The notes under the pieces are model-generated. The model worked only from the letters and a program-made list of their open reading frames with translations. It searched no databases and was not told the DNA's origin. 4,124 nt of DNA, taken from assembly GCF_003334785.1 (NCBI RefSeq), contig NZ_QOWV01000049.1; one strand, 5' to 3'. This DNA is from Escherichia coli. Lineage in GTDB: Bacteria; Pseudomonadota; Gammaproteobacteria; Enterobacterales; Enterobacteriaceae. The translations under genes were made by a program, and so were the position numbers. Numbering within the stretch: the first letter of the stretch is position 1; each line of letters starts with the position of its first letter. Positions 1 through 4,124 of this stretch are shown here, piece by piece.

Positions 1-61
1 AGAAAATATCCGGCGGGTTCCGGAGCGCCAGTCTGTAGGTTTATCCATCAATAGAACTCCG

Positions 62-100
62 TCTAATTTAGAAGGAGCTCTAATTTAGTCTGCAAGGAGC
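62..100. repeat. Short interleaved direct repeats: TCTAATTTAG (62-71, 79-88) and AAGGAGC (72-78, 94-100)
   Basis: Read directly from the sequence: gTCTAATTTAG-AAGGAGC-TCTAATTTAG-tctgc-AAGGAGC-agg. The two TAATTTAG copies place TAA/TAG stops in all three + frames (64, 69, 81, 86). AAGGAG is a perfect Shine-Dalgarno core, but no start codon follows at a usable distance. Confidence 0.6.
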
Positions 101-475
101 AGGTGTTACAGACGGCATTGGCTTTACGCTTACAATGGCTTTAAAGAAACCTTCAAAGTTCGTCCGCAGGCAACCGCCGGTGTATCCTGGCACAATGACC
201 TGTTTACCACTGCTCTTGACATTGATCTGACTCCTGCCAGTGGCTTCACTTCTGACAGCAAACGTCAGTTTGCAAGTGTTGGTGCTGAATTTAACGCATG
301 GAAATGGGCGCAATTGCGTGCCGGTTATCGTCAGAACATGGCATCAAACTCCGGAAGCGCCTTCACCGCTGGCGTTGGTATCTCTCCATTTGACGTCGTA
401 CATATCGATGTTTCCGGCCTGGTAGGAACTGACCACGATTACGGTGCAATGGCACAACTTCAGTTCACTTTCTGA
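89..475 (+). pseudogene. 3' fragment of an outer-membrane beta-barrel protein gene, with no start codon or signal peptide. Possibly the TraF_2-like putative OMP family, but this is unverified.
   Basis: Frame 2 is open for 128 codons from 89 to TGA 473-475. It has no ATG/GTG/TTG before TTG 314, which explains its absence from the ORF track. The translation ends ...LRAGYRQNMASNSGSAFTAGVGISPFDVVHIDVSGLVGTDHDYGAMAQLQFTF*. That tail has alternating hydrophobic residues and a terminal Phe, which is the classic BAM beta-signal. A strong terminator follows. Upstream of 89 all three frames are closed by stops, and beta-strand-like sequence (GAGVTDGIGFTL) sits in frame 3 at about 95-130, suggesting a frameshift. 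The family name is from memory only. Confidence 0.5.
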
Positions 476-534: not shown

Positions 535-1119
535 ATGATGAAACCACGTTCTTCTTATTCAAAAACAGCATTCATTCTTTTATTTTCTGTTTTCCTAGTA
601 GCGGCAGTGACAAAAGCAAAAAGCTCGCTTCCCGATATCACCCTGGAACAGGCAAAAGAAATTAATGCTGATAACACCGTTATTTTCCTTTTCCGCCATG
701 GAGAACGTTGCGACCGTTCAGATATGCCCTGCTATTCGGATAAGAGCGGAATCACTATTACCGGTACAGAGAAAGCACAGCAGGAAGGTATTAAGTTCGC
801 AACAATCTTCAGTGAATATGATATTTACTCCAGCAATGCAGTAAGAACCATACAAACTGCAAAATTCTTCTCCGGTAAAGAACCCGTCGTTATGGACAGT
901 TTATCAGACTGCAATAATGATCTTTATAAGACGCTTGAATCAATCGCAAGAGAATCTCATAAAAGGAACATAGTAATAATGACACATAATCATTGTTTAT
1001 CATTTCTGGCCAGAGATAGGCTCGGCAAGAAATTCAAACCGGCGTACCTTGATGCCCTGATCATGCATTACGATGGCACCCGGCTCATACTTGACGGAAA
1101 ATACAACAAAGAGGCATAG
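535..1119 (+). CDS. ais: Secreted histidine-phosphatase-superfamily protein, a paralog of Ais/PmrG (lipopolysaccharide core heptose(II)-phosphate phosphatase)
   Basis: The 194-aa ORF has an N-terminal signal-like segment (MMKPRSSYSKTAFILLFSVFLVAAVTKA). It carries the catalytic RHG motif in FLFRHGERCDRS. Long blocks match my recollection of E. coli Ais: DKSGITITGT, YSSNAVRTIQ, NIVIMTHNHCL, FKPAYLDALIMH, LDG. I estimate about 45-50% identity by eye, so this is a divergent paralog rather than the chromosomal ais allele. The SD is poor and ATG 538 is an alternative start. Confidence 0.85.
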   Translation: MMKPRSSYSKTAFILLFSVFLVAAVTKAKSSLPDITLEQAKEINADNTVIFLFRHGERCDRSDMPCYSDKSGITITGTEKAQQEGIKFATIFSEYDIYSSNAVRTIQTAKFFSGKEPVVMDSLSDCNNDLYKTLESIARESHKRNIVIMTHNHCLSFLARDRLGKKFKPAYLDALIMHYDGTRLILDGKYNKEA

Positions 1120-1513: not shown

Positions 1514-1669
1514 ATGAACCGTATTATACCTGCGGGGTGTCTTGCCGCCCTTTTTCTGGCTGGCTGCAACTCCCCTTCTCAGAATACTCCTGTTCCGCGT
1601 AACTACGGTGCTGCCTCTGATGTGGCGGTTAACGCTTGTCGCGTGGTATCAGACCTTTGCCACTGCTAA
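1514..1669 (+). CDS. Short lipoprotein-leader ORF (51 aa), probably the 5' fragment of a lipoprotein gene
   Basis: ATG 1514 is preceded by AGGA (1504-1507) at 6-nt spacing. The translation is MNRIIPAGCLAALFLAGCNSPSQNTPVPRNYGAASDVAVNACRVVSDLCHC*. It has a positively charged n-region, a hydrophobic core and lipobox L-A-G-C (Cys18). It falls below the ORF-track length cut-off and overlaps the 5' end of the 409-codon ORF in another frame. Confidence 0.45.
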   Translation: MNRIIPAGCLAALFLAGCNSPSQNTPVPRNYGAASDVAVNACRVVSDLCHC

Positions 1670-2771
1670 CCAGCGTCTGGCAGAGCTGGCTGACAGAGCT
1701 CCAGCTGTAACTTCAATGTCATCACTTGGGGAAGTTGGCGATACTGATTTATTTAGTGCTGTTATGGGGGCATACAAGACTCAATTGCAGAATTCAACTT
1801 ATACCCCACCTTTAGGTACTATAACTTCAGCAGACGAACAACTACTTTCAAAAACAAGCACGCCACAAGATGCTTTAATCAAGCCCACAGAGAAGTTTGG
1901 GCAATGGCTTACGAACAATATTGCCACCGAGTGGACTGATTCGGGTACAAGTAGCAATCAAGTTAATCCACTGATAAAAATGAAAAATATTGGTGATAAA
2001 ACTATGGTCGCTGCAGAGGGTATTTGGATTACTTATACATCTGCTAGAGTTATTACTTCAGGAACTGGGAGTTCTATATTTGGTAAATTCATAGATTTGA
2101 CGACAAGTGCTATTTCAACACTAAATGCCTTACTTGAGGCCTTAGCGCCCCCCGTATACTTTCTGTTACTACTGCTGTTTTGTGCAGGATTCTCTTTATC
2201 TATTTATTTACCATTTATTCCGTTTATTTTCTGGATGACTGGGATTGGTAACTGGGTCATTAGTGTATTAATCGGATGTACAGCTGGACCTCTGTGGGGG
2301 GCAACTCATCTAGGCACATCACAGGACAGAGGGAGTCGTGCTGCCTACGGTTATATATATTTAATAGACAGCATGATAAGACCACCTATCATGGTTTTCG
2401 GATTCTTTTTTGCCTCTGTAGCCATTATAGCAATAGGTACTATATTAAACTTTTTATTCGGTGCTGCACTGACCAATGTACAAATAAGTTCATTTACAGG
2501 TATATTTAGCCTCGCAGGTTTCTTACTTCTTTATGCTAGAAGTTGCACAACAATTGTAGCCGCAGCATTTGCCTTACAAGCATACCTCCCAGACCATGTA
2601 ATTAATTTCCTAGGAGGACGTGATGGTGTAAACACGCTTGGGAATATGGCTGGTTCAATAAAAGAGATTTTTGCTGGCAGCAATAGAAACATAAGACACG
2701 CACCTAATATAAGAGAGGAGCAAATTAAAAGGATGAATAACGACAACAATAAGGATGGAATAAAGGGATAA
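1542..2771 (+). CDS. traY: DotA/TraY-family (IncI / type IVB conjugation) integral membrane protein, N-terminally truncated. Only the C-terminal roughly half of a full-length protein is present, and the 5' about 150 nt are probably not native coding sequence.
   Basis: The 409-codon open frame begins at a TTG with no SD. The first ATG (1620) also lacks an SD. From about residue 45 onward the sequence looks protein-like, with a Ser/Thr-rich soluble region. At least 4-5 hydrophobic spans follow: VYFLLLLLFCAGFSLSIYLPFIPFIFW, NWVISVLIGCTAGPLWGA, PPIMVFGFFFASVAIIAIGTILNFLFGAAL and FTGIFSLAGFLLLYARSCTTIVAAAFAL. The ORF ends in a charged tail. The architecture and the PLWGATHL...RGS..AYGY..L......RPPIMVFG region resemble my memory of the DotA/TraY family (TIGR04346). 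The position just upstream of an ExcA-like gene fits IncI synteny. Full-length TraY proteins are much longer, about 700+ aa. Confidence 0.55.
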   Translation: MPPFFWLAATPLLRILLFRVTTVLPLMWRLTLVAWYQTFATANQRLAELADRAPAVTSMSSLGEVGDTDLFSAVMGAYKTQLQNSTYTPPLGTITSADEQLLSKTSTPQDALIKPTEKFGQWLTNNIATEWTDSGTSSNQVNPLIKMKNIGDKTMVAAEGIWITYTSARVITSGTGSSIFGKFIDLTTSAISTLNALLEALAPPVYFLLLLLFCAGFSLSIYLPFIPFIFWMTGIGNWVISVLIGCTAGPLWGATHLGTSQDRGSRAAYGYIYLIDSMIRPPIMVFGFFFASVAIIAIGTILNFLFGAALTNVQISSFTGIFSLAGFLLLYARSCTTIVAAAFALQAYLPDHVINFLGGRDGVNTLGNMAGSIKEIFAGSNRNIRHAPNIREEQIKRMNNDNNKDGIKG

Positions 2772-2787
2772 TAACTTAATATATGAC

Positions 2788-2816
2788 TTGCCATATACAC
2801 TTGGAGAGATTAAAAT
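2788..2816 (+). promoter_or_regulatory. Sigma70-type promoter candidate for the 204-aa ORF
   Basis: TTGCCA (2788-2793), then exactly 17 nt, then TAAAAT (2811-2816). Each hexamer matches the consensus at 5 of 6 positions. The candidate lies in the 75-nt gap after the traY-like stop, about 20 nt upstream of GGAGG (2833-2837) and ATG 2847. Confidence 0.5.
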
Positions 2817-2846
2817 ATCAAAAAGTGTTTATGGAGGTCATATATA

Positions 2847-3461
2847 ATGATTGGAGCATATGCAAACCGTGGCGGCACCCATTCTAAAAAAGAAACATGC
2901 GTGATCGCATTCGCGCTTTTCTACATTATTTTCGCCGTCCCATTACTAATCATTTGGAATACACCTACCAGTTGGGGACTAGCAGTAATCCCAACTGGAT
3001 TCCTACTATACTCCGGATATAAAAATGGAAGAAAGAAAAGAGCAATCGTAAATAATATCCTAGAACAGATAAAGACTGAATATCATGATGCATTCGATCC
3101 AGACCCATCTTACGAACACAAATCAATATCATCATTATATTTCGGAATTGATATCAAAAAAGGTACTGCGTTATATATTCGGCTTTACCCCAATAAAACA
3201 TTAGATGTCATTGGCATTGATATTGATAATTTTACACGGACAGTAGTAAGAGAAAACTGTATGGAAATACACACAAAGTATGTCAATATGCCAATGTTAG
3301 AATTGCCTATTGGTGTTAACTCTGCTCGTTCTATTGCAAACACATTGCACGCAATGGCAAGTCGAGGATATGATTACCCTGTCGACTTTCCTCGCCTGAT
3401 TCAGGAAAAGCGTAAGGAGTGGGAGCAGATTGCAGGTATGCCTGTAGCTGAAGTATTTTAA
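2847..3461 (+). CDS. Two-TM inner-membrane protein with a cytoplasmic C-terminal domain. It is a candidate ExcA-like entry-exclusion protein, assigned by position only.
   Basis: The 204-aa ORF has a strong SD (GGAGG, 9 nt before the ATG), its own promoter candidate and its own terminator. Two hydrophobic helices are present, CVIAFALFYIIFAVPLLIIW and WGLAVIPTGFLLYSGY. Basic residues flank them (HSKKE before, KNGRKKR after), so both termini are predicted to be cytoplasmic. A soluble domain of about 140 aa follows. In IncI1 plasmids the gene immediately 3' of traY is excA. I cannot confirm sequence similarity to ExcA. Confidence 0.8.
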   Translation: MIGAYANRGGTHSKKETCVIAFALFYIIFAVPLLIIWNTPTSWGLAVIPTGFLLYSGYKNGRKKRAIVNNILEQIKTEYHDAFDPDPSYEHKSISSLYFGIDIKKGTALYIRLYPNKTLDVIGIDIDNFTRTVVRENCMEIHTKYVNMPMLELPIGVNSARSIANTLHAMASRGYDYPVDFPRLIQEKRKEWEQIAGMPVAEVF

Positions 3462-3558: not shown

Positions 3559-3753
3559 ATGGCAAAAACAAAACAGGAATGGTTATATCAGTTACGTCGC
3601 TGTTCCAGCTTAAAGACACTTGAGAAAATTATTGCTAAAAACCAGGGCACTTTGGCCTCAGATAAAATAGAAGCATTCAACTCTGCAGTTGATCATCGCC
3701 TTGCGGAACTGACAATGAACAAATTGTACGACAAAGTACCAGCTTCTGTCTAG
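3559..3753 (+). CDS. hha: Hha/YmoA-family haemolysin-expression-modulating protein (H-NS co-regulator), with the C-terminus shortened by TAG at the conserved Trp position
   Basis: The translation [64 protein letters not shown] matches Hha/YmoA (...RLRRC.TIDTLERVIEKNKYELSD.E...[22 protein letters not shown]..VW....) across its full length. An AAGGA SD (3546-3550) lies 8 nt before ATG 3559. The track's TTG 3508 start lies inside the upstream terminator and is rejected. Confidence 0.9.
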   Translation: [64 protein letters not shown]

Positions 3754-3805: not shown

Positions 3806-3976
3806 CATTCCTGAATAAACATATCCAATATATTCCAATGCGAAGAAATAATCTCCGTAGAAACACCCATGAGAAAAATATCATATGGGAGAAAATCGCA
3901 ATTATCACAGCCAGTGCATTCATTATTTTCGCTGTGCTCTGGCATTAATTATTTTCAACATAAAAAGGAAAAAATA

Positions 3977-4047
3977 ATGAATCTGGTAGACGCCTTTGTC
4001 AAAAAAGTAATATCCGGGCCATATAAAGAATATGGAAAATGGTGGAT
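3977..4047 (+). pseudogene. 5' stub of a small hypothetical gene interrupted by the IS insertion
   Basis: ATG 3977 is preceded by AAGGA (3965-3969) and encodes MNLVDAFVKKVISGPYKEYGKWWI. The reading frame then runs straight into the IS terminal inverted repeat at 4048. The remaining residues of the track ORF (…EPPRVSWRVFYL*) are IS sequence. The part of the track ORF upstream of 3977 has no SD and looks non-coding. Confidence 0.35.
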
Positions 4048-4124
4048 TGAACCGCCCCGGGTTTCCTGGAGAGTGTTTTATCTGTGAACTCAGGCTGCCA
4101 GATCATCGTTTCCGATGGAAGCAT
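4048..4124 (-). mobile_element. IS3-family insertion sequence, IS629/IS1203/IS3411-like. The right (IRR) end is present and the element continues beyond the window.
   Basis: Positions 4048-4124, TGAACCGCCCCGGGTTTCCTGGAGAGTGTTTTATCTGTGAACTCAGGCTGCCAGATCATCGTTTCCGATGGAAGCAT, are the reverse complement of the IS629 right end as I remember it (...TATGCTTCCATCGGAAACGATGATCTGGCAGCCTGAGTTCACAGATAAAACACTCTCCAGGAAACCCGGGGCGGTTCA). The terminal TGAACCGCCCCGGG is the characteristic IS3-group inverted repeat, with a 5'-TG terminus. Confidence 0.85.
4090..4124 (-). CDS. IS3-family transposase OrfB, extreme C-terminus (partial, continues off the window)
   Basis: The minus strand reads (t)at gct tcc atc gga aac gat gat ctg gca gcc tga, giving ...YASIGNDDLAA*. 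The stop is the complement of 4090-4092. This matches the remembered C-terminal end of the IS629 OrfB. Confidence 0.75.
   Translation of the reverse strand, partial: ASIGNDDLAA

Follow-up and report, generated by a model that had tools for sequence, protein, structure and literature searches.

The locus described here raises the question of why a well-formed lipoprotein gene start runs, out of frame, into a long open reading frame (ORF) resembling traY. The window, by which we mean the whole stretch of DNA analyzed, is 4,124 nucleotides of Escherichia coli sequence (RefSeq assembly GCF_003334785.1, contig NZ_QOWV01000049.1). An earlier account made without database searches (the sequence-only reading) had offered two explanations, a recombination or deletion scar or a one-base frameshift in a lipoprotein-TraY fusion gene. 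Our comparisons point to a scar. We put at roughly 95% the probability that positions 1514-1740 hold the scar left by a single intramolecular deletion, one that struck the transfer region of an IncI1-type plasmid and brought the start of traH against the latter half of traY in the wrong frame.

The window was compared by megablast with PLSDB and 5,426 complete E. coli genomes, and no single record covered it end to end. Each side of the join had close relatives. The right arm (1627/1630-4050) aligned at about 99.5% to more than 1,000 IncI1-type plasmids, which carry traY, excA, hha, and a small ORF there; identity to IncI1 traY, excA, and hha was 99.3 to 99.5%. The left arm (133-1631) was 99.3 to 99.6% identical to another part of the same plasmid type, which runs from the 3' end of traF across a histidine-phosphatase gene into the beginning of traH. 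Thus, the lipoprotein leader is the native 5' end of traH, a gene annotated as the IncI1-type conjugal transfer lipoprotein TraH.

The join was placed by a base-by-base, three-way comparison of the window with native traH (pTD225C4_108) and native traY (pACN001-F and pSal8934a). The window tracks traH through 1631 (...GATGTGGCGGTTA) and traY from 1630 (TAACGCTTG...), and the overlap is the TA dinucleotide at 1630-1631, common to both parents. On the plus strand, traH nt 1-118, or 39 codons and one further base, occupy 1514-1631 and are identical to native traH apart from one private single nucleotide polymorphism (SNP) at 1583. The 3' part of traY follows at 1632-2771, also on the plus strand (nt 1030-2169, codons 344-722 including the stop; 99.3 to 99.5% identity to IncI1 traY). 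In pSal8934a, which has a complete traE-traY region, the two arms are collinear and are separated by 19,730 bp that hold traI to traX. Homology to the left arm stops at position 13696 of the pSal8934a locus (L010) and homology to the right arm picks up at 33427, so the deletion comprises 19,730 bp (13697-33426). It took away the last 341 nt of traH, every gene from traI to traX, and nt 1-1029 of traY, leaving traH nt 118 next to traY nt 1030. Since traH nt 118 is base 1 of codon 40 and traY nt 1029 is base 3 of codon 343, the join is out of frame. It shows 2 nt of microhomology (TA) and no insertion sequence (IS). The deletion scar proposed by the sequence-only reading, with a lipoprotein gene 5' end set out of frame against the 3' half of traY, was thus borne out; the break at 1630-1631 falls within its bracket of 1600-1700, and 1514-2771 is not collinear with any one gene.

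This scar explains two spurious ORFs. The features first noticed here are all present, namely, AGGA at 1504-1507 (the native traH Shine-Dalgarno site), a 6-nt spacer and ATG at 1514, a lipoprotein leader, a TAA stop at 1667-1669, and a frame-3 ORF open from 1518 that overlaps the leader ORF by about 150 nt. The first ORF (1514-1669, plus strand) opens with MNRIIPAGCLAALFLAGC followed by NSPSQ and has an L-A-G-C lipobox; MNRIIPAGCLAALFLAGC is identical to residues 1 to 18 of native TraH. Past the join, translation in the traH frame takes in 12 codons of traY in its +1 frame (NACRVVSDLCHC) before it meets the stop, which gives a 51-amino-acid ORF made of TraH residues 1 to 39 and a 12-amino-acid out-of-frame tail from traY DNA. 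Its product matched no Pfam or NCBIfam family. A TraH protein would be recognized by the DotD domain (PF16816), which full-length relatives carry, and by a full length of about 152 amino acids; 39 TraH residues are left here, and both marks are absent. A terminator-like hairpin with a T-run lies within the signal-peptide coding region of traH (1532-1551; GGGGTGTCTTGCCGCCCT TTTTCT) and is probably a coincidence of hydrophobic-leader codons.

Frame 3 opens after a TGA at 1515-1517 and contains an ORF from 1542 to 2771, 409 amino acids long from a TTG. Followed upstream, the traY frame stays open through 29 wrong-frame traH codons, and this is the source of the nonsense N terminus of the long ORF. 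About 45 off-frame residues had been suspected there; such a stretch exists but is confined to the first 29 residues (1542-1628), with genuine TraY from 1632. Within this ORF, LTLVAWYQTFATANQ corresponds to VTLGAWYQTFATANQ of native TraY. On contigs L006 to L008, which carry the same junction, gene callers chose instead an ATG at 1620, giving a chimeric 383-amino-acid ORF (1620-2771, plus strand) whose start lies out of frame within DNA derived from traH and which continues in the traY frame. This is an accidental out-of-frame ATG in traH DNA, and it has no convincing Shine-Dalgarno sequence. The TIGR04346 (DotA_TraY) profile scored 281.9 bits against a cutoff of 100 and covered only profile positions 322-656 of 656. 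The N-terminal signal/transmembrane segment and the periplasmic domain of TraY are missing, native codons 1-343 having been deleted. Taken together, these features indicate that the 51- and 383-amino-acid ORFs are most likely nonfunctional by-products of the deletion rather than a purposeful fusion gene. As a functional protein, the locus belongs to neither the TraH nor the TraY family, with the defining domain absent in the first case and full coverage absent in the second. This cautions against annotating "lipoprotein" and "TraY" here.

The traH breakpoint is shared with other deletions. In 21 finished plasmids of the pS045-CMY-42 type, another traH-traY deletion has a traH breakpoint identical to the nucleotide and a traY breakpoint 612 bp further upstream. 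This allele, traH118::traY418, is a 19,118-bp deletion and is likewise out of frame (L003 4382-6330; pS045-CMY-42, NZ_CP076315.1, plus 20 other PLSDB plasmids). Its 53-amino-acid stub (P0001) occurs on 291 contigs, where source names are "lipoprotein" or "hypothetical protein." When 5.8 billion proteins were searched with this stub, 17 short fragments of the TraH N terminus were recovered. Setting aside two contig-end or adapter artifacts and one duplicate junction left 14 informative fragments, which together with the window stub make 15 truncation types. Departure from TraH occurs at codons 39 to 41 in 11 of the 15.

Ten junction types fall at one TA, comprising eight rightward deletions, one leftward deletion, and one 10-nt insertion. 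The rightward deletions are independent of one another and all start at ...GGCGGTTA, with the break directly after it. Their partners are traO nt 592 (9,654 bp lost), traU nt 1077 (14,240 bp), traU nt 2221 (15,384 bp), traU nt 2229 (15,392 bp), traW nt 768 (17,556 bp), traY nt 418 (19,118 bp), traY nt 1030 (the window; 19,730 bp), and trbC (more than 30 kb). The leftward deletion from the same TA removes 2,244 bp, so that TraF codon 38 runs in frame into TraH codon 40. Small lesions at the site are an 8-bp deletion, a 1-bp deletion, and the 10-nt insertion. A TA lies directly 5' of the join at every deletion partner site (9/9), and the microhomology, 2 to 4 nt long, always includes it. With a TA frequency of 0.048 in the reference, the probability of TA at nine of nine partners is about 1e-12; for the clustering of breakpoints, P was <3e-7 under conservative assumptions. 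A G two bases before the TA (GNTA) is found at 7/9 partner sites. Because the first query was an N-terminal stub, rightward, out-of-frame events are oversampled in these counts. A search with full-length TraH, which is not an unbiased census of breakpoints, yielded family context and one leftward junction.

On balance, we lean toward the view that the traH breakpoint is an undescribed, nucleotide-precise hot spot in IncI-complex plasmids, where a TA on the dyad of a 29-bp imperfect palindrome would produce 3' ends that prime on distant TA dinucleotides, from 2 kb to more than 30 kb away and in either direction. Not every tra deletion uses this hot spot. In pACN001-F (L009 31384-31390), a deletion starts upstream of traH, in the phosphatase-traH intergenic region, and runs into traU (L010 13314 to 28665) with 7 nt of microhomology. 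In the searchable literature, we found no description of the hot spot or of traH-traY deletions. An unrelated 135-bp in-frame traH deletion has been described in a different traH lineage (PMC3817090).

In native traH, the hot-spot TA sits on the dyad of an imperfect palindrome, CTGATGTGgCGG-TTAC-CCGgCACAcTCAG (L010 13682-13710), whose left arm and half-loop survive at window positions 1617-1631. The native DNA is predicted to fold into an interrupted 11-bp stem with the break in its TTAC loop (predicted free energy, -10.8 kcal/mol; z, -2.39), and 3 of 200 shuffled sequences did equally well or better. One partner site is itself the center of a perfect palindrome, CCGGGTATACCCGG. In L020 (1013-1027, against L010 16356-16371), the 10 nt inserted at the hot spot, GGTTA-CTGTTCACGA-CCCGG, copy GTTACTGTTCACGAC from a phospholipase D gene 2.66 kb downstream, with entry via GTTAC and exit via AC. 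Judged by its sequence, this insertion is the signature of a template switch, in which the hot-spot 3' end would prime on a distant template and then return. It indicates that at least one event at the hot spot involved templated synthesis.

A mechanism can be proposed along these lines. A 3' end would arise exactly at the center of the palindrome, for instance, when a hairpin or cruciform loop is cleaved on the template and synthesis then runs off. Through its terminal TA, in many cases preceded two positions earlier by a G, that end might anneal to single-stranded DNA at another place on the plasmid and be extended. The DNA between the hot spot and the priming site would be lost, by template switching or by microhomology-mediated repair. 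If this is correct, one short structure-forming sequence would be a major route to the loss of self-transmissibility in IncI plasmids, and its products would include transfer-region deletions (those of the widespread CMY-42 IncI-gamma plasmids among them), an in-frame TraF-TraH fusion, and a templated insertion. The hot spot thus bears on how conjugative plasmids become nontransmissible or only mobilizable, as IncI-complex resistance plasmids repeatedly lose their type IVB transfer genes. It would also give work on long-range template switching in bacteria a naturally occurring substrate.

The regularity of these junctions could also be the work of a sequence-specific enzyme and not of DNA structure, such as a serine-recombinase-like or HUH-type nuclease acting at the central TA or a BstEII-type enzyme recognizing GGTTACC. 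The crossover always lies at the TA on the dyad axis, and the TA at all nine partners and the GNTA at seven would suit such an enzyme. Junction L017 used TA/TA (the slash marking the break) and passed over an adjacent 7-nt homology, TACCCGG, and the IncI1 backbone carries an Rpn-family nuclease gene. However, the partner sites have no recognizable common motif beyond TA, and the 37.5-kb reference stretch has seven more GGTNACC sites, none of which coincides with any of the nine. Junction L016 retains GGTTACC, no sfx-like site for the Rci recombinase is present, and the templated insertion in L020 indicates polymerase priming as opposed to ligation or strand exchange. We consider an enzyme of this kind unlikely, although a real contender.

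Several observations touch on such enzymes. The Rpn-family gene encodes a "recombination-promoting nuclease" (L022 10884-11810; pSal8934a 57883-58809) and is a candidate contributor to RecA-independent rearrangements. The native heptamer GGTTACC (L010 13692-13698; window 1627-1631) is a GGTNACC site of the BstEII/Eco91I type, one of eight in 37.5 kb. It is destroyed in most rearranged alleles and in a SNP variant of native traH, L004 (GGTTATC), and is kept at the traO junction. A search for sfx-like Rci sites found none within three mismatches, and the Rci shufflon site was set aside, as the native traH site has, by eye, only GTGCC in common with sfx. A relaxase nic site, the integron motif GTTRRRY, and the TTAC target of IS608 were also rejected because the cut position or the flanking motif did not fit. 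An IS30 hot spot was likewise considered and set aside; no IS is present at any junction.

For the window itself, a two-step history can be imagined in which a traH118::traY418 ancestor lost a further 612 bp between TAA repeats and later exchanged its traY-3'/excA cassette by homologous recombination. The left breakpoint is the same to the nucleotide, and the L003-type sequence GGTTAA...GGGTAA/CGC offers a TAA microhomology that would give the exact window sequence. Against this, the left arm of the window groups with the pTD225C4 lineage and not with L003 at three informative SNPs, and the traY-3'/excA cassettes are only about 73% identical. Moreover, eight further independent junctions at the same TA mark it as a hot spot, so that shared ancestry with traH118::traY418 is not needed. 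We regard a nested deletion as improbable and prefer a single deletion from the hot spot.

The exact junction of the window, 100% identical over the shared length, is present on four other metagenome contigs (L005 to L008), all of which end in IS copies. Three are European Nucleotide Archive (ENA) metagenome scaffolds that encode the 51-amino-acid product, and the fourth is a separate whole-genome shotgun contig carrying the junction 20-mer; at least two projects are represented. The 51-amino-acid lipoprotein is not a conserved stand-alone gene, being found on only three metagenome contigs, all with the same scar. The junction was not found in PLSDB, the 5,426 complete E. coli genomes, or the GTDB representative genomes. 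In particular, a BLAST search of 1560-1700 against the complete E. coli genomes gave no record across the join, and neither the exact-junction 26-mer nor a degenerate 20-mer (allowing any nonnative base after GGTTA) had a match among the GTDB representatives. In a metagenome scan, the degenerate 20-mer recovered only L005 and L004. Contig L005 (QZMB01001618.1; 1-297 against window 1-327) has a scar 100% identical to that of the window and a different left boundary. From window position 328, it shows a GC-rich stretch that, on visual inspection, looks like internal sequence of an IS66-family transposase gene. This boundary is either a second rearrangement or an assembly chimera.

That the junction as a whole is an assembly or library chimera is very improbable. 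The window and all copies do come from short, IS-bounded metagenome contigs, and palindromes can provoke template switching in vitro. Yet four further contigs, taken from three ENA samples and a whole-genome shotgun record of its own, have the identical junction; a 2-nt overlap cannot cause a k-mer mis-join during assembly; and analogous junctions lie at the same nucleotide in 21 finished plasmids and on 291 contigs. A single-base frameshift, by sequencing error or recent mutation, in a genuine lipoprotein-anchored TraY-core fusion gene can practically be dismissed: the frames are one base apart, so that inserting or deleting a single nucleotide between 1632 and 1666 would formally unite them, but in intact plasmids the halves belong to two genes separated by 19.7 kb, none of the five independent junction copies is in frame, no in-frame version was found in PLSDB, the complete E. 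coli genomes, or the GTDB representatives, and the remaining rightward deletions from the same site are likewise out of frame.

Some observations weigh against a single deletion at a structure-driven hot spot. For the deletion, no intact parental plasmid with the exact allele combination was recovered. Private SNPs, six of them in the left arm plus one at 1639, are unmatched among the references compared, and every contig with the junction ends in IS copies, short of the carrier replicon. For the hot spot, the predicted traH hairpin is only moderately significant (z, -2.4), and the partner sites show no consistent or significant predicted structure. The mechanism of the break is read from the anatomy of the junctions, which would accommodate hairpin cleavage, replication stalling, or a TA-acting enzyme.

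The sequence-only reading had also drawn attention to a change from GC-rich to AT-rich DNA and had taken it to mean that a GC-richer gene was joined to an AT-rich one. The change is real: GC content is 0.52 to 0.56 over 1501-1740 and 0.37 to 0.44 beyond. It is not the junction, however, which lies at 1630-1631, 110 nt upstream of the composition break at about 1740, and the notion of two genes of contrasting origin fails, as both parts come from the same plasmid backbone. Intact traY has a GC content of 0.49 at nt 1-1140 and 0.39 thereafter, compared with 0.38 for excA and 0.51 for traE-traX. Identity to IncI-gamma/K-type traY is 93 to 98% before about 1750, then 80% and falling. The drop is thus a native boundary inside traY, between its conserved part and a variable cassette, and is unrelated to the scar. 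From GC content and lineage identity, we delimit a low-GC, lineage-variable traY-3'/excA exclusion cassette at 1740-3461 (plus strand), with the composition break as its left edge. Six excA variants and nine traY variants have been reported among IncI1 plasmids (PMC8004404). IncI-complex plasmids seem to swap this cassette as a low-GC module.

The gene excA, for IncI1 surface/entry exclusion, is intact at 2847-3461 (plus strand). Its 204-amino-acid product has the length seen in the references, scores 234 bits with NF033891 (cutoff, 100), and differs from that of pSal8934a by one substitution, V82A. Just upstream is a promoter-like site, TTGCCA-17-TAAAAT (2788-2816, plus strand), identified by consensus match; since promoter-like sites are not above chance numbers in the region, it is only a hint. 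As excA is intact, the remnant, though nonconjugative, may still exclude incoming IncI1 plasmids. It is the one gene of the window that could plausibly still act.

The rest of the window fits the same origin. At its left end, positions 1-132 (minus strand) are the terminal segment of an ISEc23-like IS66-family element that cuts traF; positions 1-135 are 100% identical to hundreds of E. coli IS copies, and in pWP5-S18-ESBL-08_1, the match to the left terminus sits at the end of an ISEc23-family IS66 element. A 3' fragment of IncI1 traF follows (133-475, plus strand), with the first ~860 nt gone, 99.3 to 99.6% identity to traF of pTD225C4_108 and pSal8934a, and a weak TraF_2 Pfam match. The histidine-phosphatase gene of the IncI1 tra operon is intact at 535-1119 (plus strand), and its protein, matched by His_Phos_1 and NF011945, is identical to that of pSal8934a. 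Beyond excA, an hha homologue (3559-3753, plus strand) is 5 codons short. Its TGG codon at 3751-3753 has become TAG through a G-to-A change at 3752, turning W65 into a stop, and it has two Thr-to-Ala substitutions relative to the IncI1 references. The 5' part of a small IncI1 hypothetical gene (3869-4050, plus strand; a 285-nt coding sequence in pACN001-F) is cut by an IS3-family element, and IncI1 homology stops at 4047-4050. The end of that element occupies 4048-4124; contigs L006 and L007 run on into IS3-type transposase ORFs. On the evidence of its gene content, the window is a remnant of an IncI1 transfer region (traF', phosphatase gene, traH'::'traY, excA, hha') lying between IS elements. 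It was trimmed further by the IS66-family element on the left and the IS3-family element on the right. With the type IVB secretion system gone, the segment is unable to support conjugation.

How does this locus compare with known systems? In the Legionella Dot/Icm type IVB secretion system, DotD and DotA are the counterparts of TraH (DotD/TraH family) and TraY (DotA/TraY family). Unlike that system, the window keeps 39 residues of a DotD homologue and the C-terminal half of a DotA homologue, with no secretion system. The nearest relative is the IncI1 (R64/ColIb-P9-type) transfer region. The two agree in gene order, in nucleotide identity on both sides of the scar (99.3 to 99.6%), in the native traH Shine-Dalgarno site, start codon, and lipobox, in the native 3' end of traY, and in an intact excA. 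They differ in that the window lacks the 19,730 bp from the 3' part of traH to the 5' part of traY and that IS elements truncate traF and the small ORF at the distal end. The scar is a deletion-derived pseudogene junction in a decaying conjugative module, a familiar kind of ordinary gene decay.

The traH118::traY418 CMY-42 plasmids share with the window the left breakpoint (...GGCGGTTA), a right breakpoint in traY at a TA, the codon phase, the out-of-frame outcome, and the flanking genes. In contrast, these IncI-gamma/K plasmids have their right breakpoint 612 bp further upstream and another exclusion type, with a cassette about 73% identical, and their records are finished plasmids, whereas the window is an IS-bounded remnant. 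Deletions associated with palindromes or hairpins, like template switches at microhomology, are known in E. coli, with SbcCD hairpin cleavage, replication slippage, and alternative end joining as routes. The traH junctions resemble them in having one endpoint at the center of an imperfect palindrome, 2 to 4 nt of microhomology, and a templated insertion. Classical palindrome deletions span tens to hundreds of base pairs, however, while at the traH site one end is fixed to the nucleotide and the other falls at distances from 2.2 kb to over 30 kb, on both sides of the palindrome. The traH hot spot thus belongs to the known palindrome-associated rearrangements, and what sets it apart is the unusual combination of nucleotide precision at one end with kilobase reach at the other.

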